Origin: Escherichia coli
GTDB taxonomy: Bacteria; Pseudomonadota; Gammaproteobacteria; Enterobacterales; Enterobacteriaceae
NCBI RefSeq assembly: GCF_003018255.1
Contig: NZ_CP027440.1
Direction: 5' to 3' (one strand)
Length of the DNA stretch: 64,000 bases
This document shows positions 806 to 43,651 of this stretch, one piece after another; position 1 is the first letter of the stretch, and every line of letters begins with the position of its first letter. Below the pieces are notes generated by a model, which was given only the letters and a program-made list of their open reading frames with translations, did no database searches and was not told the origin of the DNA. A program made the position numbers and the translations under genes.

Positions 806-2290
806 ATGGAAACCTTCCTTTCCCTTCGTCATATCAACAAAACGTTTCATGCCACGCGAGCGCTGCGCGATGTTTCTCTCGACTTTATGTCGGGTGAGGT
901 GCACTGCCTTGCCGGGCAAAACGGCTGTGGTAAATCGACGTTGATTAAAATTATGTCCGGTGTTTATCGCCCGGATGAGGGGGCGGAAATTACGCTTGGT
1001 GGGAAAAACTGGTCAAAGCTGACACCCGCCGCTTCGGTGGCGCAGGGGATTCAGGTGATTTATCAGGACCTCTCTTTATTTCCTAACCTGAGTGTCTGGG
1101 AGAATATCGCCGTGAATCACTATCACCACGGTCTGTTTGTTAACCGCCGTCGTCTGCGTGAGGTGGCGCAGGCGGCAATGACCAGTATTAACGTCACATT
1201 GCCACTGGATACGCTCGTTTCTGAGCTTTCAATTGCCCGCTGTCAGCTGGTGGCAATTTGCCGTGCACTGGCGCAGGACGCACGGTTGATCGTGATGGAT
1301 GAACCAACCGCTTCGCTGACCCATCAGGAAGTGCAAGGGTTATTACAGGTGGTGCATCAATTGCGGGAACGCGGGATCTGCGTGGTCTTCGTCAGTCATC
1401 GTCTGGAAGAAGTGATGGAAGTTTCCGACCGTATTTCAGTGCTGAAAGATGGTGAGCTGGTCGGGACCTTTCCGGCCGCAGAGATGACCACAAAACAACT
1501 CAGTTTTCTGATGACCGGCCAGGAGTTCGAATATCAGGTACGAGAGTTGTGGCAGGGAAAATCCAGCACCCCGGTGCTGGAGGTGCGTAATTTAAGTCGT
1601 CATGGGGAATATCAAAATATTAACTTGCGGGTGGAAGCGGGCGAAGTGGTGTCGATTGTTGGCCTGCTTGGTGCGGGGCGCACGGAATTATGTCTGAGTC
1701 TGTTTGGTATGACCCGACCGGATGCTGGTGAGATCCTCATCAACGGTCAGCCGGTTACACTGCATAGTAACCAGGACGCCATCCGCCACGGTATTGGTTA
1801 TGTTTCGGAAGATCGCATGTCGCGCGGTTTGGTGATGGCGCAATCTATTGAAGACAACATCATTAGCACTGTTTTTCACAAGGTAAAAGATCGCTTCGGC
1901 TTTCTGAGTGAAGCTAAAGTGCGTGACCTGGTGGACAGGCTAATCAAGGCATTGACCATCAAAGTCTCTGACCCACATCTCCCGGTGAATACGCTTTCCG
2001 GGGGTAACGCGCAGCGAGTATCGATCGCCAAATGGCTGGCGATTGGGCCACGACTGTTGATTCTCGATAGCCCGACTGTCGGTGTTGATATCGCCAACAA
2101 AGCAGGAATATACGGCATTATCAGCGATCTGGCGGCTCATGGCATTGCGGTATTGATGATCTGCGATGAAATTGAAGAAGCGTGGTATCAAAGCCACCGG
2201 ATTTTGGTAATGCAAAAAGGTCAGATCACCCATAGCTTCCTGCCTGACAGCAGTTCTCAGGCCAGGATTGCGGAGGTGGTAAATGGCTGA
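806..2290 (+). CDS. sugar ABC transporter ATP-binding protein with duplicated ABC domains (RbsA/XylG-like)
   Basis: Two Walker A motifs (GQNGCGKST and GLLGAGRTE) and an LSGGNAQR signature; track ORF begins at TTG 791, in-frame ATG at 806 preceded by GGGGA. Confidence 0.85.
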   Translation: METFLSLRHINKTFHATRALRDVSLDFMSGEVHCLAGQNGCGKSTLIKIMSGVYRPDEGAEITLGGKNWSKLTPAASVAQGIQVIYQDLSLFPNLSVWENIAVNHYHHGLFVNRRRLREVAQAAMTSINVTLPLDTLVSELSIARCQLVAICRALAQDARLIVMDEPTASLTHQEVQGLLQVVHQLRERGICVVFVSHRLEEVMEVSDRISVLKDGELVGTFPAAEMTTKQLSFLMTGQEFEYQVRELWQGKSSTPVLEVRNLSRHGEYQNINLRVEAGEVVSIVGLLGAGRTELCLSLFGMTRPDAGEILINGQPVTLHSNQDAIRHGIGYVSEDRMSRGLVMAQSIEDNIISTVFHKVKDRFGFLSEAKVRDLVDRLIKALTIKVSDPHLPVNTLSGGNAQRVSIAKWLAIGPRLLILDSPTVGVDIANKAGIYGIISDLAAHGIAVLMICDEIEEAWYQSHRILVMQKGQITHSFLPDSSSQARIAEVVNG

Positions 2291-3254
2291 ACTGAAAAAA
2301 CGCCATGAATTCTGGCTGGCATTACTGATTGTGGTGCTGTTTGTTGGCCTTGCCTGGCGCAGCGACGAGTTTCTGACATTCGGTAATTTGTACGATCTCG
2401 CCAATAACTATGCCATGTTGACTATTCTCGCCTGTGGTTTGTTTGTGGTGTTAATTTCCGGTGGGATTGATATTTCGTTTCCGGCAATGACCATCATTGC
2501 GCAATACGGCATGGTGCTGTTGCTGCAAAAAATTGGTGGCAACTTTGCTGTTGCGTTTGCCCTGGCGGGCGGCATCGGCATTTTACTTGGCTTAATTAAC
2601 GCCTTACTGGTTAATCGCCTACGGGTGCCTTCTATCATCATCACTATCTCGACGCTGAATATTTTCTATGGCCTGCTGTTATGGTTGAGTAAAGGTGTGT
2701 GGCTGTACGACTTTCCGCCGTGGTTTGAGCAGGGGGTTATGTTGTTCAAGTACACCGATGCTGATGGCTATGACTATGGCCTTGGTCTACCGCTGATCGC
2801 CATGATTACGGTGGTGCTGCTAACAGCGTTTATCATGAATTTCACCAGTGTAGGGCGCAAAATTTATGCCCTTGGCGGGAACCGTGAATCCGCCAGTCGC
2901 ATCGGCTTTAGTGTGCTGAAACTGCAACTTTTCGTCTATGGCTATATGGGATTGATGTCTGGTGCTGCGGGTGTAGTGCAGTCGTGGACGGTGATGACTG
3001 TCGCCCCCGATTCTCTTCTGGGTTATGAGCTGACAGTACTGGCTGCGGTGGTGCTTGGCGGCACTAGTTTGCTCGGCGGGCGCGGCACGTTAACCGGTAC
3101 TTTGCTCGGCGTGGTGTTGTTGGCAGTGATGCAAAACGGGCTAAATTTATTGGGAGTCTCGTCTTACTGGCAAACATTGATCACCGGCATCATCATCGTT
3201 GCCAGCATTAGCGCCACGGCGTGGAGTCAGCATCAGAACCGGAGTCTGCTATGA
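2283..3254 (+). CDS. sugar ABC transporter permease (RbsC/branched-chain family)
   Basis: Hydrophobic multi-TM protein; ATG 2283 lies 5 nt upstream of the ATPase stop, so the two genes overlap by 8 bp. Confidence 0.85.
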   Translation: MAELKKRHEFWLALLIVVLFVGLAWRSDEFLTFGNLYDLANNYAMLTILACGLFVVLISGGIDISFPAMTIIAQYGMVLLLQKIGGNFAVAFALAGGIGILLGLINALLVNRLRVPSIIITISTLNIFYGLLLWLSKGVWLYDFPPWFEQGVMLFKYTDADGYDYGLGLPLIAMITVVLLTAFIMNFTSVGRKIYALGGNRESASRIGFSVLKLQLFVYGYMGLMSGAAGVVQSWTVMTVAPDSLLGYELTVLAAVVLGGTSLLGGRGTLTGTLLGVVLLAVMQNGLNLLGVSSYWQTLITGIIIVASISATAWSQHQNRSLL

Positions 3255-4207
3255 AAAAATCGTGGCGTAACAACGTTGAGTTTTACTTGATCGGCCTGCT
3301 GGTGCTAACTGTTGCAGCCTTCAGCATTACTATGCCGGAGATTTTCTGGTCGATAAGTAATTTCCAGTCCGTCGCTTCGCAAATGCCCGTGCTGGGCATT
3401 CTGGCGTTGGCTATGGCGGTGACCATGCTTTGCGGTGGCATTAACTTGTCAATTATAGCCACTGCTAACGCCTGTTCACTGGTGATGGCGTGGGTGGCGA
3501 CTCAGTATCCACCGGGTATTGCTACGGTTGTCGCTACGCTGCTGGCGGGCGCTGGCGCGGCGGTGATAATCGGTTTATGTAACGGCGTATTGATTGCTGG
3601 TATTCGAGTGTCGCCAATTCTTGCAACACTCGGGATGATGACGTTGCTCAAAGGGGTAAATATTCTGGTGACAGGCGGTAGCGCCATTGCCAATTATCCC
3701 TCATGGGTGCTGTGGTTGAATCATGCACAGTGGTTCGGTATTCCGCTACCGATGTGGTTGTTTACCGCAGTGGCGCTGGGGCTGTGGATATTGCTGGAGA
3801 AAACGCCGCTCGGTAAATCCATTTATCTGATTGGTTCTAACGAACGAGCAACACTTTACTCCGGTATTAACACTCGTCGGGTGCTGATATGGGTGTATGT
3901 CATTTCCGCCTTGCTTTGTGCGGTAGCGGCATTTTTGATGATGTCGAAACTCAACTCGGCTAAGGCCTCTTATGGCGAATCGTACTTGCTGGTGTCAATC
4001 CTCGCGGCAGTACTCGGCGGGGTTAATCCGGACGGCGGCAGCGGGCGGATAATTGGTATGGTGCTGGCGCTGTTTCTTCTGCAAATTATTGAAAGCGGCT
4101 TCAATATTCTCGGTATAAGCCCCTACCTGACGATGGCCTTATGGGGAACGTTGCTGCTCTGTTTCATTCAGGCTCGCGGCATGTTAGGGCTGGATCGGGT
4201 GGTTTAA
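3251..4207 (+). CDS. sugar ABC transporter permease, second subunit
   Basis: ATGA start/stop overlap with the upstream permease at 3251-3254, GGAG 7 nt upstream; track ORF starts at GTG 3221. Confidence 0.8.
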   Translation: MKKSWRNNVEFYLIGLLVLTVAAFSITMPEIFWSISNFQSVASQMPVLGILALAMAVTMLCGGINLSIIATANACSLVMAWVATQYPPGIATVVATLLAGAGAAVIIGLCNGVLIAGIRVSPILATLGMMTLLKGVNILVTGGSAIANYPSWVLWLNHAQWFGIPLPMWLFTAVALGLWILLEKTPLGKSIYLIGSNERATLYSGINTRRVLIWVYVISALLCAVAAFLMMSKLNSAKASYGESYLLVSILAAVLGGVNPDGGSGRIIGMVLALFLLQIIESGFNILGISPYLTMALWGTLLLCFIQARGMLGLDRVV

Positions 4208-4293
4208 ATATTGGCTATATTCAATGGACGCGTTTTGCCGCGATGACATATCAGGCATCGCCAAATACACATAGCTAATCAGGAGTAAACACA

Positions 4294-5343
4294 ATGAAGA
4301 TCAAAGCTGTTGGTGCATATTCCGCTAAACAACCACTTGAACCGATGGATATCACCCGGCGTGAACCGCGACCGCATGATGTCAAAATCGAAATCGCTTA
4401 CTGTGGCGTCTGCCATTCCGATCTCCACCAGGTCCGTTCGGAGTGGGCGGGGACGGTTTACCCCTGCGTGCCGGGTCATGAAATTGTGGGGCGCGTGGTA
4501 GCTGTTGGTGATCAGGTAGAAAAATATGCGCCGGGCGATCTGGTTGGTGTCGGCTGCATTGTCGACAGTTGTAAACATTGCGAAGAGTGTGAAGACGGGC
4601 TGGAAAACTACTGTGATCACATGACCGGCACCTATAACTCGCCGACGCCGGACGAACCGGGCCATACTCTGGGCGGCTACTCACAACAGATCGTCGTTCA
4701 TGAGCGATATGTTCTGCGTATTCGTCACCCGCAAGAGCACCTGGCGGCGGTGGCTCCTTTGTTGTGTGCAGGGATCACCACATACTCGCCGCTACGTCAC
4801 TGGCAGGCCGGGCCGGGTAAAAAAGTGGGCGTGGTCGGCATCGGCGGTCTGGGACATATGGGGATCAAGCTGGCCCACGCGATGGGGGCGCATGTGGTGG
4901 CATTTACCACTTCTGAGTCAAAACGCGAAGCGGCAAAAGCCCTGGGGGCCGATGAAGTTGTTAACTCACGCAATGCCGATGAGATGGCGGCTCATCTCAA
5001 GAGTTTCGATTTCATTTTGAATACAGTAGCTGCGCCACATAATCTCGACGATTTTACCACCTTGCTGAAGCGTGATGGCACCATGACGCTGGTTGGTGCG
5101 CCTGCGACACCGCATAAATCGCCGGAAGTTTTCAACCTGATCATGAAACGCCGCGCGATAGCCGGCTCTATGATTGGCGGCATTCCAGAAACACAGGAGA
5201 TGCTCGATTTTTGCGCCGAACATGGCATCGTGGCTGATATAGAGATGATTCGGGCCGATCAAATTAATGAAGCCTATGAGCGAATGCTGCGTGGTGATGT
5301 GAAATATCGTTTTGTTATCGATAATCGCACACTAACAGACTGA
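4294..5343 (+). CDS. yahK: NADPH-dependent aldehyde reductase, zinc-type alcohol dehydrogenase family
   Basis: 349 aa; GHEIVGRV zinc-ADH motif and GxGxxG (GIGGLGHMG); AGGAGT RBS upstream; matches my recollection of E. coli YahK. Confidence 0.9.
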   Translation: MKIKAVGAYSAKQPLEPMDITRREPRPHDVKIEIAYCGVCHSDLHQVRSEWAGTVYPCVPGHEIVGRVVAVGDQVEKYAPGDLVGVGCIVDSCKHCEECEDGLENYCDHMTGTYNSPTPDEPGHTLGGYSQQIVVHERYVLRIRHPQEHLAAVAPLLCAGITTYSPLRHWQAGPGKKVGVVGIGGLGHMGIKLAHAMGAHVVAFTTSESKREAAKALGADEVVNSRNADEMAAHLKSFDFILNTVAAPHNLDDFTTLLKRDGTMTLVGAPATPHKSPEVFNLIMKRRAIAGSMIGGIPETQEMLDFCAEHGIVADIEMIRADQINEAYERMLRGDVKYRFVIDNRTLTD

Positions 5344-39673: not shown

Positions 39674-39726
39674 ATATACTATAGGGGGGTATGTTATATG
39701 TCAATGCATACCCCCCTATAGTATAT
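39674..39726. promoter_or_regulatory. candidate FrmR operator: perfect 19-bp inverted repeat ATATACTATAGGGGGGTAT / ATACCCCCCTATAGTATAT separated by 15 bp
   Basis: Seen in sequence immediately upstream of frmR; G6/C6 tracts flanked by AT-rich arms resemble RcnR/FrmR-family operators. Confidence 0.6.
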
Positions 39727-39833
39727 AACACTGGAGAATAAAATTTATCCGGTGAATGTAGTCGGATAACAAAAAGTAAAGAGGGGCCTAATCGACAGGG
39801 AAGGCCGCCCCGGATAGCGGGCGGCAGAAGGAA

Positions 39834-40607
39834 TCAGAATTTCCAGGTCAGATGGGCTGCAAGTTGCAGACCGTTATAATCATCGGTTGGGGTGTCGTAC
39901 CACACTTTACCTGCCGTCAGCCCGAGATTAAGTTGCTCAGTCAGCGGTTGAATACGTTGCAAACTGACGCTCTTCATGCTGCCGTAGCGTGTTTCTGGCG
40001 TCCAGTCATAGGTGTAAGCACCTGTTCCGCGGCTTAGCCATAGTTGCGTATAACCAGTGCCGCGCGGGTCATTCAGACGCACGGAAATCATATTGCTGTA
40101 ACTACCACCTGCATCGCTGGAGTCATAATGGGTATAGCGATAGCTGGTGATCACCGGGCCTGTATAGAGGGATACGCCGCCTTGCCAGGCATCGACTTCG
40201 ACATCATCGTAATATTTAGTGTAGCGATAACCGGTCGTGAAAAGCGTTTTTGGCAACAGGGCCAGGTTAATATCCTGACGAAAATCCTGGCGGGCAAAGA
40301 CCGGCGTATTATCCGCAAAGGCAATACCCGTTCGGGTTGTCAGCCAGTTATTCCATTTATACCAGACCGCACCCTGACCGCGAGTGGCATTGAAATGTTC
40401 AGTTTCATAATCACGACGCCCCTGGGAAAGATTAAAAAGCAGCGTTGCGTTTTCAACTTTCGCCACCAGTTCAGCATACGCTAAATTACGGTTGCCATGA
40501 TCGCCAGAATAATCGGTAAAATCGTAGCCCGCGGTAATGGAAGTTAACCCGGCATAAGCGGGCAATGTGCTAAATATTGCCGCCGCTAATAACGTCCGTT
40601 TTATCAT
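39834..40607 (-). CDS. yaiO: outer-membrane beta-barrel protein
   Basis: 257 aa, signal peptide MIKRTLLAAAIFSTLPAYA, C-terminal ...HLTWKF; last gene of the yaiS-P-X-O operon. Confidence 0.88.
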   Translation of the reverse strand: MIKRTLLAAAIFSTLPAYAGLTSITAGYDFTDYSGDHGNRNLAYAELVAKVENATLLFNLSQGRRDYETEHFNATRGQGAVWYKWNNWLTTRTGIAFADNTPVFARQDFRQDINLALLPKTLFTTGYRYTKYYDDVEVDAWQGGVSLYTGPVITSYRYTHYDSSDAGGSYSNMISVRLNDPRGTGYTQLWLSRGTGAYTYDWTPETRYGSMKSVSLQRIQPLTEQLNLGLTAGKVWYDTPTDDYNGLQLAAHLTWKF

Positions 40608-40608
40608 T

Positions 40609-41319
40609 TTAATCTCCTGTACGGATAAGTTCTTGTCGGAGTGAATAAGTTCCGGTAGGTAAATTACGTTCTACAACCACGCGCGGGCCAAGTTGCGTGT
40701 TCGGGGAAATAATTCGCCCAGGCAAAATAATAACTTGTACGCCAAGGCGTGAACGCTGCCCGATATAACAACCTAATTTATCGCATCCGGTAGCGATAAT
40801 TCCCTCTGGAGTTCGAACAGACACGGGCTGTTCATCCAGACGATGATTACTGGTTCGTACTTGTGCGCCCAAATATGCCTGGTTTGCAACTACCGAGTCG
40901 GCAATAAAGCATTGCGGACCAATCGTTGCTTCCGCTTCAATAACCGCATTTTTAATTTCGGTGGCAAAACCAATTTTTACGCCATTGCTGATTATTGTGC
41001 CAGGACGAATAAACGCATAATTACCTATCAGGCAGTTTGCGCCAATCACTACCGGACCCTGAATAACGGCACCGTGGCAAATACGGGTATTCGCGCCGAT
41101 AACAACCTCACCGGCACTTTCATCAATAATCACCTGGTCTGCAATCTGAATATTTTTCTCTTTAACATTAAGCTTCAGATAGTTTTTCAGTTCCTGTGAC
41201 AGAAGGGTGGGAATAAGCGGTTGACGCTTCCACCAGTGCGGAATAGCGGGTGGGTTTGTCGCGCTGAGGTTCGCGTCCAGTAAAAAAGGCAATAAGTCCA
41301 TAAATAATCCAGATGGCAT
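40609..41319 (-). CDS. yaiX: hexapeptide-repeat (left-handed beta-helix) acyl/acetyltransferase
   Basis: Intact 236-aa track ORF with repeated hexapeptide motifs; real start uncertain because the first ~50 codons overlap the yaiP 3' end. Confidence 0.7.
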   Translation of the reverse strand: MPSGLFMDLLPFLLDANLSATNPPAIPHWWKRQPLIPTLLSQELKNYLKLNVKEKNIQIADQVIIDESAGEVVIGANTRICHGAVIQGPVVIGANCLIGNYAFIRPGTIISNGVKIGFATEIKNAVIEAEATIGPQCFIADSVVANQAYLGAQVRTSNHRLDEQPVSVRTPEGIIATGCDKLGCYIGQRSRLGVQVIILPGRIISPNTQLGPRVVVERNLPTGTYSLRQELIRTGD

Positions 41320-42364
41320 AAGCTAATAATACATACACAACGGAAAGCGGTGCTAAAGGCACCAACAACCAGCAACGATGAAACCAGGCGCTAAATGCAC
41401 CAATAACACAAACTACGCCGACCCAGATAAGCGGGAACATTGCCAACACCACACCATGTGGCCCGGTGGTGATGAATTCATTAAACCAGGTAGTGAGATA
41501 AATCCCAACGCCATAAAGCACAACCAACAGCATAGGAAATATACTGAAGATACCGAAGCGGCTAAATAAAAGTCTTTTATGCAGGCGCATACAGACCGCG
41601 TAGCCCACAATCCAACGCCGCCAGCGACGCCATTCCTCACGCGGGCTGTTGCATTCCTGTGGGTATACGATGCAGCGATTCGCCTGCCGAATACGATAGC
41701 CGTTTGCCACCAATGTCCAGGTGAGATCAAGGTCTTCGACTTTAGTACGATCAGAGAAACCGAACTTACGCAATACATCAGTACGGAACATCCCGCAGGC
41801 ACCGCTGATAATAAACGGTGCGCCGCCCAGGAGCTGCTGTAGCGTGCGCTTCATAACAATCATCGGCAACTTTACGGTCGCGCGGATGTGCGGTAACAGA
41901 CCCGCGCCTTTCAACGCAGTAGAGGGAATGCCGCCTACGGCATCAGCACCGCGCTCTATTTCTGCCAGCATATAGCCCATTCCGTCTTGATCGGGCGGAA
42001 CATAGGTGTCGGCATCATTTAAAAAAACCTGATCGCAGGTGGCGTAATTGAGGCCATTCATTAGCGCACCACCTTTACCGGTATTTTTTTGCGTGACGGC
42101 AATAAAGCGGTCGCCCCATTTGCGTTTGACTTCCGCCATGACCGCTTCGGTATTGTCCGTGGAGCCGTCGTTAACGCAAATTACCCGGCAGAAATAAGGG
42201 TTACGCAGCAGATTATCCAGTGACTGCGCCAGACACGGGCCTTCGTTATAAGCAGGTATAATGGCGTCAATACAGCCTTTCTTTTGGCTGGGCTTACGCC
42301 TTAACGTACTCAGAAACCATAGCAATATTGCTACGGCCATACATATAAAGATCCAGGTTTTCAT
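41168..42364 (-). CDS. yaiP: family-2 glycosyltransferase, membrane-embedded (putative processive synthase)
   Basis: 398 aa; N-terminal TM helix, GT2 catalytic core (DGSTDNT, DAD, EWRRWRRW resembling QxxRW) and C-terminal TM helices. Confidence 0.85.
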   Translation of the reverse strand: MKTWIFICMAVAILLWFLSTLRRKPSQKKGCIDAIIPAYNEGPCLAQSLDNLLRNPYFCRVICVNDGSTDNTEAVMAEVKRKWGDRFIAVTQKNTGKGGALMNGLNYATCDQVFLNDADTYVPPDQDGMGYMLAEIERGADAVGGIPSTALKGAGLLPHIRATVKLPMIVMKRTLQQLLGGAPFIISGACGMFRTDVLRKFGFSDRTKVEDLDLTWTLVANGYRIRQANRCIVYPQECNSPREEWRRWRRWIVGYAVCMRLHKRLLFSRFGIFSIFPMLLVVLYGVGIYLTTWFNEFITTGPHGVVLAMFPLIWVGVVCVIGAFSAWFHRCWLLVPLAPLSVVYVLLAYAIWIIYGLIAFFTGREPQRDKPTRYSALVEASTAYSHPSVTGTEKLSEA

Positions 42365-42373
42365 GCAATTTGC

Positions 42374-43060
42374 TCAAAGAATCATTTTATGAATAACAAA
42401 ACCTTCACCCAGATCGCTATTGACCTGTTGCCCGCGAAATTGAGCAACTGCACGCAGACGCTCCGGGCGCATATAATCTCGCTGGCTCTGACTTTTATGT
42501 TTTTTTAACGCAGTCAGTTTAAGAGAAAAATATTCTTCTTTCACGGATTCAAAAACCTGAGGCATAAATGAAAGCCAGGTACTTGGTGTTTCATAGCCGA
42601 GAATTTGCGGAATAGCGCGACAGGCAACCATTGAGGCTTGATAGACTGCAAGATGATCCTGATGGCGGTCAGCATCATGCATGGTATATACACGTATAAT
42701 TTCAATATCAGAGGGAATTTGATTTTTTATGATATTTTCCAGGGCAGAAATCATATCATTGAGCTGTAAATGAGCGCGGGTGTCAGCAAAATTAAGATGA
42801 ATAGTTTGGTGGCACCCTAATATCTTTAGAGCGTTGCGTGATTCTTCGTGGCGATCGATTATTCCATCTACGCCAGAATTACCGGTAGTCATCACCACGG
42901 TAGCAATATAAATTCCTTTTTGCGCAAGGCGAGCTAGCGATGCGCCACAGCCTAATTCTATATCGTCAGGATGCGCGCCAATGGCAAGGATACCCTTTCT
43001 TTTATTTGCCGAAGAAAGGATCGCTGAATCTAAAACCTTATCCACTTTATGACACTCCAT
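42374..43060 (-). CDS. yaiS: LmbE/PIG-L-family N-acetylglucosaminyl deacetylase
   Basis: 228 aa; AHPDDIE and HxDH motifs; 9-bp gap to yaiP. Confidence 0.85.
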   Translation of the reverse strand: MECHKVDKVLDSAILSSANKRKGILAIGAHPDDIELGCGASLARLAQKGIYIATVVMTTGNSGVDGIIDRHEESRNALKILGCHQTIHLNFADTRAHLQLNDMISALENIIKNQIPSDIEIIRVYTMHDADRHQDHLAVYQASMVACRAIPQILGYETPSTWLSFMPQVFESVKEEYFSLKLTALKKHKSQSQRDYMRPERLRAVAQFRGQQVNSDLGEGFVIHKMIL

Positions 43061-43651
43061 TTTATTTATTATACTACAAGCACAACGACGCCCGCAGAGA
43101 CGTAACCTCTGACGCAGACAGATGCTAATTTTTAAGTGTTAAAAATAGCTGATAGCTGAAAAACAAGGGGCTGCCAGGTACGGGGATAAGACTGTATAAT
43201 CTTTATGTAGTTCATATGTTAAGTGTTTGTGTGTTTGGTTTGTATGGTTATTTTGTTTTATATATTGTATTTAAATGTGATTTAGTTTGTCAATTAATTG
43301 CATATTAAAAATATGTTCTATGCACAAATATGGGTTATATACATTATGTGAATGTATTATGTGGTTGATTGAGAATGATACAGTTATATATGCAATGTGA
43401 ATATAATGGTTTCATTATATGTATTGCTGTTAATAAAATAAAAGACATTATAATCTGCTTGTTTATGCATTAATAAAATGAAGTGCAGTAACTTACTGAA
43501 TTGTCAGAGTGGGTGTAATTGCATATTTAATCTTTCCTTTGCCACTTTTTCGCTAAGAATAAAATCATCTGTGCGATAACAACTAATTCTTTTAATGAAT
43601 GTTTTTATTCCTGAATACTGCTCCCATAACAAGACAGGGGAGCAGACAATC

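Follow-up and report, generated by a model that had tools for sequence, protein, structure and literature searches.

A 64,000-nucleotide stretch of the Escherichia coli genome (contig NZ_CP027440.1; "the window" below means this whole stretch) carries at positions 39834-43060, between frmRAB and tauABCD, four genes on the minus strand: yaiS (42374-43060; the longest open reading frame (ORF) encodes 228 aa), yaiP (41168-42364; 398 aa), yaiX (40609-41319; longest ORF, 236 aa) and yaiO (39834-40607; 257 aa). A first-pass annotation, made from the sequence alone, took these four tightly packed genes for one functional module that makes, tailors and exports a surface polysaccharide or glycolipid. 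The ORFs lie exactly at the coordinates it had given: yaiS and yaiP are 9 nt apart, the 3′ end of yaiP runs into the yaiX ORF, and a single nucleotide separates yaiX from yaiO, a spacing that is operon-like. Two of the start codons need a comment. That of yaiS is probably the GTG at 43045, giving a protein of 223 aa, because GGAG is found 9 nt upstream of it and because the longer ORF has a stop at codon 5 in other strains. For yaiX the candidates are ATG 41319, ATG 41301 and TTG 41292, and PGAP has chosen CTG 41202; codons 10-63 contain no canonical start codon, the conserved core of the protein begins at about residue 56, and the gene is preceded by no Shine-Dalgarno sequence (PMC13058169).

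Integrity and spread of the four genes

The locus is 99.9% identical to that of strain JNE23-011 and 94.7% identical to that of K-12. Among 5,426 complete E. coli genomes, 5,424 match part of a 4-kb query that includes the frmR and tauA flanks, and in 4,251 a single site accounts for 80% or more of the query; genomes of the O157:H7 type match with the flanks only, and absence of the genes from O157:H7 has also been reported (PMC4453288). When the window is compared pairwise with other alleles, the ratio of nonsynonymous to synonymous substitution rates (dN/dS) is 0.05-0.3 in all four genes, and it stays low for yaiS even against the allele of K-12 and SE11, where synonymous divergence (dS) reaches about 0.35. 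All four genes are thus under purifying selection within E. coli. The four frames are open in all of the eight sampled E. coli loci except that of K-12, in which two lesions are seen. The first, an IS2 element that splits yaiX, had been named in the first-pass annotation, and comparison with K-12 bears it out, as the four full-length frames of the window bear out its claim of an uninterrupted operon here. The second, absent from that annotation, is a change of codon 191 of yaiS from CAG to TAG, by which the last 38 conserved residues are lost. The codon is CAG in all sampled loci other than K-12, and the C-terminal part of about 43 aa is kept in all cassette orthologs of YaiS. The exact K-12 63-mer around codon 191 is found in 355 genomes, of which the two examples listed, ER1709 and C600, are K-12 laboratory strains, and a further 2,223 genomes differ from it by at least one base.

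RefSeq/PGAP flags the intact yaiS as an incomplete pseudogene ("missing C-terminus") in six of the genomes opened, the nearest genome included; each of the six also has a ykiC-type small ORF annotated on the opposite strand, across the 3′ end of yaiS. The label was rejected because the DNA is identical or the frame open, and because the protein aligns end to end with cassette orthologs and with Dac structures; the flag looks like an annotation artefact. The same gene shows another peculiarity. When 42300-43500 of the window is compared with the corresponding regions of SE11 and K-12, nucleotide identity is 88-93% in yaiS and 79-83% over 43100-43500, with 97-99% in yaiP, yaiX and yaiO, which suggests that the alleles separated long ago or that a recombination breakpoint lies where yaiS meets yaiP.

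How far do these genes travel together? All orthologous loci examined, even those whose YaiO is only 26-35% identical, have the order yaiS-yaiP-yaiX-yaiO, in line with the claim that the four proteins form one module, and at none of these loci does the cassette hold a gene beyond the four. Such loci are found in Citrobacter braakii, where the cassette adjoins hemB, and in Citrobacter sp. FP75; on plasmid-like contigs of Salmonella with ccdAB and a PapB-type regulator; on an integrase-associated island; in Acinetobacter sp. ANC 4558, downstream of rpoBC; in Stenotrophomonas, whose yaiO had not been called as a gene but is there as an ORF; in Lysobacter pythonis; in metagenome-assembled genomes (MAGs) of a member of Pseudomonadota and of Sphingomonadaceae; and on metagenome contigs with MvaT as a neighbour. 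YaiP is the most conserved of the four proteins across loci (52-85% identity) and YaiO the least (26-81%). In the scan for related loci, which was seeded with an alignment of YaiP orthologs and covered one genome per species, full orthologs are few, and the next-best glycosyltransferases of family 2 (GT2) fall to 32% identity.

The cassette is also carried on 49 plasmid records, 33 of them conjugative, from E. coli, Salmonella and Enterobacter mori. A complete copy lies on KS-NP019_P1, a conjugative IncF plasmid that also encodes CNF2 (cnf2), and another on pSTEC388_2, an IncFIB plasmid of Shiga toxin-producing E. coli (STEC), where it is bounded by IS1, IS66 and IS3 and adjoins fimbrial genes. 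In the E. coli ST131 strain 2822, the examined copy (1499-4705 of locus L019) lies not between frmR and tauA but by an IS66 fragment and a gene for 3′-phosphoadenylylsulfate (PAPS) reductase, and its YaiS is 62.5% identical to that of the window, YaiP, YaiX and YaiO being 94-97% identical. The conserved four-gene order, the plasmids and the IS-flanked islands, taken together, argue that yaiS-yaiP-yaiX-yaiO is a self-contained, horizontally mobile cassette. None of the four proteins matches the anti-phage defence profiles of PADLOC at E <= 0.001. On one of the Salmonella contigs, a PAPS-reductase gene followed by a DUF3440 domain was seen about 4 kb upstream of the cassette.

Several features surround the genes of the window. 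The AT-rich region that had been pointed out upstream of yaiS is indeed there: 43000-43600 has a G+C content of 26-32%, and the AT-rich stretch 5′ of yaiS measures about 540 bp. A candidate sigma-70 promoter on the minus strand (43264-43293; TTGACA-18 nt-TACAAT, 11 of 12 consensus positions) lies in the yaiS-tauA intergenic region about 200 nt upstream of yaiS; it is a consensus match, and promoter-like sites are no commoner here than in shuffled sequence. A search of the region upstream of the operon for riboswitches or leader RNAs with Rfam gave nothing above the gathering score. At the other end, a GC-rich hairpin on the minus strand (39804-39825; GCCGCCC...GGGCGGC), read from the sequence 9 nt past the yaiO stop codon, is tentatively a 3′ end of the transcript; it has no clean T-run and was not called by a terminator scan. 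A small ykiC-like ORF of 39 codons is intact on the plus strand (42389-42508), opposite the 3′ end of yaiS; PGAP annotates such an ORF in relatives, and YkiC stands in a table of K-12 small ORFs, placed between yaiP and yaiS (PMC6001520). Beyond the operon, at 39674-39726 and just upstream of frmR, a perfect 20-nt inverted repeat (ATATACTATAGGGGGGTATG / CATACCCCCCTATAGTATAT) flanks a TTGACA hexamer, presumably the FrmR operator with the frmRAB promoter; spurious matches to microRNA precursors in Rfam near this site are due to the perfect repeat.

The four proteins

YaiP belongs to the Pfam family Glycos_transf_2 (E 2e-27), with further matches to Glyco_trans_2_3 and Glyco_transf_21 (E 2e-7). 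Its best match in NCBIfam is PgaC_IcaA (TIGR03937), with 100.2 bits over residues 23-286, and polyprenyl-phosphate transferases such as ArnC reach about 34 bits. The GT-A domain contains the motif set of processive membrane GT2s (D, DxD, (T)ED and QxxRW) with the Gln replaced by Arg; D66, D117-x-D119, E210-D211 and R247-W-R-R250-W251-x-x-G254 are invariant in 29 orthologs. Thus, of the earlier description of YaiP as a membrane GT2 with DxD, a "QxxRW-like" motif and flanking transmembrane (TM) helices, the family, the DxD and the helices stand, and the last motif has to be rewritten as RWRRWxxG, with Arg for Gln. In an AlphaFold2 (AF2) model (pLDDT 80.6), one N-terminal TM helix is followed by a cytoplasmic GT-A domain, an interface helix with RWRRW and three long C-terminal helices; a monomer with these four TM helices could probably not form a channel. 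A Foldseek search of the PDB with this model gave hyaluronan synthases (HAS) as top matches (E 6e-13, TM-score 0.62-0.64), with lower scores for GtrB (0.34-0.37) and ArnC (0.39), and PcManGT and BcsA also below HAS. With PgaC_IcaA as top curated family and HAS as top structures, these searches do not place YaiP among the non-processive, lipid-linked transferases. Its structural neighbours in AFDB50 beyond the orthologs are GT2s that resemble synthases of poly-N-acetylglucosamine (PNAG) or are labelled, by automatic annotation, beta-monoglucosyldiacylglycerol (MGlcDG) synthase, and several of them are fused to NodB-type deacetylase domains. As a profile of YaiP orthologs reached only generic GT2 N-terminal halves in the PDB, and neither HAS nor BcsA, the assignment rests on NCBIfam, Pfam and the fold search; from these, YaiP is best regarded as an inner-membrane GT2 of synthase type, but not PgaC. 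Orthologs in Xanthomonadales and Acinetobacter are 62-69% identical to it. A further observation concerns the basic C-terminal tail of YaiP, which would be periplasmic by helix count and cytoplasmic by the positive-inside rule: the stretch GREPxRDKPTRY (residues 363-374, at about 41243-41278 on the minus strand), which comes after the last membrane helix and holds an RxxxR, is invariant in all orthologs and might be a docking or regulatory site.

YaiS had rightly been called a member of the LmbE/PIG-L deacetylases: it matches PIG-L of Pfam (PF02585) at E 3e-24 and has both metal/catalytic motifs of the family, (A/P)HPDD as AHPDD at residue 29 and HxxH as HQDH at residue 133, which are kept in all cassette orthologs and place it among the sugar deacetylases. 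Among solved structures it comes closest to archaeal diacetylchitobiose deacetylases (8bgn/3wl4; E 3e-12), with an end-to-end alignment through residue 223, and its relatives in the PDB include Dac, BC1534/2ixd, TT1542 and BshB. Against the curated equivalogs it stays below every cut-off (BshB1, 78.8 vs 182.5 bits; BshB2, MshB and Mca, at most 29 bits). No signal peptide is visible in YaiS, and its orthologs start directly at the catalytic fold. YaiS is therefore described here as a predicted zinc de-N-acetylase of the PIG-L/LmbE family, cytoplasmic by the look of its N-terminus, and to our knowledge every characterised deacetylase of this family acts on a GlcNAc (N-acetylglucosamine) glycoside. 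An actinobacterial locus, from Mumia quercus (4556-11783 of L025), was rejected as an ortholog of the cassette, its GT2 being only 32% identical and its PIG-L domain fused to a receiver, and was not used for inference. Its GT2 is PgaC-like, with 166 bits against TIGR03937, and the locus further encodes a histidine kinase, an ATP-grasp protein and the fusion of a response-regulator receiver domain to PIG-L, whose PIG-L part is 41% identical to YaiS; a deacetylase controlled by phosphorylation would be unusual.

YaiX shows the hexapeptide/left-handed beta-helix (LbH) fold in Pfam. It matches the NCBIfam profile Arch_glmU (TIGR03992) with 129 bits over profile positions 233-393, that is, only the C-terminal LbH part, and it lacks the N-terminal nucleotidyltransferase domain of GlmU; the whole-protein score stays below the cut-off of 292 bits. 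In the PDB it aligns with Sulfolobus ST0452 (2ggo/5z09) at E 8e-23 over residues 242-398, the long insertion loop included. By these matches YaiX is related specifically to the C-terminal domain of archaeal GlmU, the N-acetyltransferase of amino-sugar-1-phosphates (GlcN-1-P/GalN-1-P; GlcN, glucosamine; GalN, galactosamine). Like YaiS, it shows no signal peptide, and in its orthologs the fold begins at the N-terminus. Overexpression of the 71-aa YaiX fragment of K-12 gave higher tolerance to many antimicrobials, the 236-aa form being weaker, and no biochemical function was assigned (PMC13058169, 2026).

YaiO, the founding member of its family, scores 184 bits against TIGR04390 (cut-off 32) and E 5e-26 against PF19413. 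It has a Sec signal peptide with cleavage after AYA, leaving a mature protein of 237 aa, and it is modelled (pLDDT 89) as a barrel of 14 strands whose loops are short and which lacks a periplasmic domain; the outer-membrane beta-barrel of the first-pass annotation is thus well founded. The fold of the model is closest to CymA and OmpG at 8-9% sequence identity, and no sequence relatives of YaiO were found in the PDB. YaiO differs from the exopolysaccharide secretins PgaA, BcsC, AlgE and PelB, which have 16-18 strands and usually a TPR domain or partner, and it has no N-terminal hatch domain as in lipid transporters of the FadL type. The family proper amounts to 61 clusters among 1.84 billion representatives. 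Frequent fusion of YaiO-family barrels to TPR repeats, which would have spoken for a PgaA-like role, could not be confirmed: the longer members inspected seem to have a SPOR-type domain and a low-complexity linker at the N-terminus. In four distant members of 448-544 aa (E about 1e-6 to the cassette profile), an N-terminal SPOR-type domain, a charged low-complexity linker and then the barrel are recognised by eye, which points to a separate subfamily tethered to peptidoglycan. In the literature, yaiO has been used as an "orphan", E. coli-specific PCR target and its protein localised to the outer membrane (PMC4453288), and a transposon insertion in yaiO of CFT073 was found in a screen for altered expression of type 1 fimbriae (PMC6727828). 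Because the cassette is also plasmid-borne, yaiO is not strictly a chromosomal marker of E. coli.

What the cassette may produce

A surface phenotype is reported briefly in EcoGene 3.0: repair of the yaiX′ pseudogene in K-12 leads to clumping in vegetative growth, for which YaiP is required (PMC3531124). What kind of product would be made by these four proteins? It was proposed at first that a polymer is synthesised, tailored and exported through a porin. In the sense of PNAG or cellulose, this scheme does not fit the parts, since YaiS and YaiX have no signal peptides, no PgaD, PgaB or TPR partner is present, and YaiO has 14 strands; and the product may be an oligosaccharide or a glycolipid rather than a polymer. 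GT2 synthases extend the non-reducing end as the chain exits the membrane, so that cytoplasmic enzymes cannot edit a polymer once it is translocated, and YaiS and YaiX, without signal peptides, are expected to be such enzymes. This leaves three kinds of target for them: the donor or primer, a short oligomer once it is released, as with Nod factors, or a lipid-linked head group.

The reading we prefer, with a probability of roughly 0.45 when its variants are included, is an "acetyl swap" on an envelope oligosaccharide or short glycan. The sugar would be GlcNAc, judging from the PIG-L family of YaiS, the GlmU-type partner, the PgaC top match and the GT2-NodB fusions among the structural neighbours of YaiP, and deacetylation and any re-acylation would be cytoplasmic, judging from the N-termini of YaiS and YaiX and of their orthologs, which begin at the catalytic fold. 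First, YaiP would use UDP-GlcNAc at the cytoplasmic face to make a short GlcNAc-containing glycan; a short product is favoured over a long polymer like PNAG by the four TM helices of YaiP, by its lack of a PgaD-like partner and by YaiO, a small barrel of the OmpG/CymA type. Second, YaiS would de-N-acetylate a GlcNAc residue, be it in the donor, in the primer or in the oligomer after its release. Third, YaiX, if catalytic, would re-acylate the free amine, possibly with an acyl group other than acetyl, before exit from the cytoplasm, so that the swap would follow the logic of NodC/NodB/NodA or LpxC/LpxD by way of unrelated enzyme families. Finally, the product would cross the outer membrane via YaiO, as through the sugar-sized pore of OmpG or CymA, and would mediate cell-cell adhesion, seen as clumping, at the surface. 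The product is most likely an adhesive surface glycan based on GlcNAc/GlcN. As all components are intact in this strain, the module is probably functional if it is transcribed.

A number of points weigh against this proposal. GlcNAc as the donor sugar is suggested only by the partner enzymes and by a PgaC match that falls far below the equivalog cut-off (100.2 vs 422.3 bits). The Gln of QxxRW in YaiP is an invariant Arg, and RxxRW is also the form seen in a non-processive lipid glycosyltransferase, glucosylceramide synthase. His308 of ST0452, which we take to be the catalytic His at the position of GlmU His363, aligns to Pro135 of YaiX, within a GP(Q/M)C motif that is invariant in orthologs, and Lys337 and Lys340, presumably phosphate-binding, are Gln and Ser in YaiX and variable among orthologs; Asn331 is kept as Asn158, followed by an invariant His159. 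Since YaiX also resembles non-catalytic LbH domains such as those of eIF2B-epsilon, GlgC and GMPPB, it could be a structural partner without catalysis, and of its first description as a hexapeptide-repeat acyltransferase the fold is sound and the activity unproven. The cassette has no inner-membrane exporter besides YaiP. The account of clumping goes back to a 2011 meeting abstract, not peer-reviewed, that is cited in the database paper (PMC3531124), and, on that account, clumping arose in K-12, where yaiS is truncated, so that YaiS or its C-terminus may be dispensable there. Finally, with the AT-rich upstream region and no Shine-Dalgarno sequence before yaiX (PMC13058169), expression may be low or silenced.

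Could the glycan be attached to a lipid? In this alternative, YaiP adds a single GlcNAc or a few sugars to diacylglycerol, polyprenyl phosphate or another lipid, YaiS deacetylates the product at the inner leaflet, YaiX N-acylates it to an N-acyl-glucosaminyl lipid and YaiO aids its placement at the surface, much as GlcNAc-phosphatidylinositol (GlcNAc-PI) is converted to GlcN-PI by PIG-A/PIG-L, or as in the HpnI/HpnK steps of hopanoids and in LpxC/LpxD. A lipid-anchored substrate at the inner leaflet would be within reach of cytoplasmic YaiS and YaiX, the founders of the PIG-L family act on a glycolipid, and YaiP itself offers RxxRW in place of QxxRW, a match to Glyco_transf_21 (E 2e-7), only four TM helices and many structural neighbours labelled MGlcDG synthase. 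These labels are automatic, however, and the top family and structures of YaiP are processive (PgaC_IcaA; HAS at TM-scores of 0.62-0.64 against 0.34-0.37 for GtrB and 0.39 for ArnC). YaiO, with 237 aa when mature, short loops and no hatch of the FadL type, is not what a lipid would call for, and clumping is commoner for exopolysaccharides. A glycolipid product is unlikely in our view.

Somewhat less probable still is a classical synthase-dependent exopolysaccharide, that is, a long PNAG- or chitin-like polymer, made and translocated by YaiP, then partly deacetylated and acylated, which is exported by YaiO as in pgaABCD or icaADBC. The top curated match and the HAS-like fold of YaiP, the NodB-type fusions among its neighbours, the presence of a deacetylase and an acyltransferase beside the synthase, as IcaB and IcaC in ica, and the reported YaiP-dependent clumping (PMC3531124) would all fit. 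Nevertheless, a polymer that leaves on the periplasmic side would be out of reach of YaiS and YaiX, which have no export signal and belong to cytoplasmic families (LmbE and GlmU-type LbH) and not to CE4 or the membrane O-acyltransferases, and YaiP has 100 of the 422 bits that PgaC demands, four TM helices and no PgaD/IcaD partner.

A third alternative differs from the acetyl-swap proposal only in the order of steps: YaiS and YaiX would act first and turn UDP-GlcNAc or GlcNAc-1-P into an N-acyl analogue for YaiP to use as its donor. It suits the cytoplasmic location of both proteins and the fact that the closest characterised relatives of YaiX act on amino-sugar-1-phosphates, and it would explain why YaiX is needed in the YaiP-dependent phenotype. 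On the other hand, no member of the PIG-L family is known to deacetylate nucleotide sugars or sugar-1-phosphates, and the presumed phosphate-binding Lys337 and Lys340 of ST0452 are not kept in YaiX or its orthologs; such editing of precursors is improbable. Least of all can the cassette be regarded as a silent or decaying relic, its genes intact by chance, unexpressed or no longer cooperating and without physiological role, for although the AT-rich upstream region may be silenced, yaiX lacks a Shine-Dalgarno sequence (PMC13058169), K-12 tolerates the lesions and O157:H7 has no cassette (PMC4453288), all four genes have dN/dS of 0.05-0.3, yaiS alleles as far apart as dS of about 0.35 included, the gene order is strictly kept on conjugative plasmids and from one class of Proteobacteria to another, distant genera have a YaiP that is 62-69% identical, and every sampled E. 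coli locus but that of K-12 has the four frames open.

Relation to known systems and meaning for E. coli

The cassette belongs to none of the pga, ica, bcs, pel, alg and nod systems, since defining features of these were tested and not found in it; it is rather hybrid-like. With pgaABCD and icaADBC it shares a membrane GT2 synthase, a neighbouring GlcNAc de-N-acetylase with an acyl-modifying protein, a dedicated outer-membrane barrel and an aggregation phenotype. It differs from them in the score of YaiP and the lack of a PgaD/IcaD partner, in YaiS, a cytoplasmic LmbE/PIG-L protein where PgaB and IcaB are periplasmic CE4 enzymes, in YaiX, a soluble LbH protein where IcaC is a membrane O-acyltransferase, and in YaiO, with 14 strands and no TPR against 16 strands and TPR in PgaA. 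The accessory set of pgaABCD (PgaD, a CE4 PgaB and a PgaA with TPR and 16 strands) was not found at any cassette locus examined. Class I hyaluronan synthases (those of Chlorella virus and Xenopus HAS1) resemble YaiP in the GT-A domain, the interface helix with xxRW and the membrane helices. They are, however, only 14-17% identical to it and about 100 residues longer (488-527 in the solved chains), and have six TM helices in place of four; YaiP has Arg for Gln in the motif, and nothing points to a product containing glucuronic acid (GlcA). OmpG and CymA, monomeric 14-stranded sugar channels, are like YaiO at the level of fold only; the loops of YaiO are far shorter, and it lacks a plug at the N-terminus such as that of CymA.

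The synthesis of Nod factors by NodC/NodB/NodA provides the same three predicted cytoplasmic steps: a small membrane GT2 that has few TM helices builds an oligomer of GlcNAc, one amine of which is set free by a deacetylase and re-acylated by an N-acyltransferase, and the closest solved relative of YaiS deacetylates chitobiose. The enzyme families are not the same, YaiP having 29 of the 550 bits for NodC (TIGR04242), NodB being CE4 against PIG-L, and NodA forming a family of its own against LbH; besides, the cassette has no ABC exporter of the NodIJ type and has an outer-membrane barrel in addition. Thus, the comparison is a working analogy and not membership. If it were taken at its word, the product would be a short oligomer of GlcNAc that bears an acyl group other than acetyl on its terminal amine, in other words a Nod-factor-like acylated chito- or PNAG-oligosaccharide, made by families new to such chemistry (RxxRW GT2, LmbE and GlmU-type LbH), released through its own minimal 14-strand channel and spread among enteric pathogens on conjugative virulence plasmids; so specific a picture is doubtful. 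To "glycosylate, deacetylate, re-acylate" is a recurring logic of LmbE/PIG-L pathways. In mycothiol (MshA/B/D), bacillithiol (BshA/B), glycosylphosphatidylinositol (GPI; PIG-A/PIG-L) and teicoplanin-type (Dbv21 and an acyltransferase) synthesis, a deacetylase of the same family as YaiS stands beside a glycosyltransferase and an acyltransferase or acyltransferase-like protein, as in the cassette. In contrast to these, YaiP is a synthase-type membrane GT2 and not a soluble GT4 or GT1, YaiS stays below the equivalog cut-offs (79 vs 182 bits for BshB1), and the cassette has no MshC/BshC ligase and has an outer-membrane channel.

What was known before is a set of y-genes with a hint of phenotype in print, and in the published literature no paper was found on the identity of the product or on the four genes as a mobile cassette. 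New here are the status as a mobile cassette, the purifying selection, the second lesion of K-12, the structural class of YaiP and YaiO and the cytoplasmic location predicted for YaiS and YaiX. K-12 genetics and the Keio collection are silent on the cassette because the K-12 copy is broken twice, though most natural isolates carry it. In practical terms, intact yaiS genes carry a pseudogene flag in RefSeq, and the PCR marker yaiO belongs to a mobile cassette that is also found in Citrobacter, Salmonella and Enterobacter plasmids. If the proposal is true, this would be a synthase-type system with cytoplasmic N-deacetylation and re-acylation, unlike all the well-studied synthase-dependent exopolysaccharide systems, and E. 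coli would gain an envelope-glycan system beyond cellulose, PNAG, colanic acid, enterobacterial common antigen (ECA) and capsules. With copies on a CNF2 plasmid, on a STEC plasmid and on islands of ST131, an adhesive or host-interacting product could matter in colonisation and biofilm formation.

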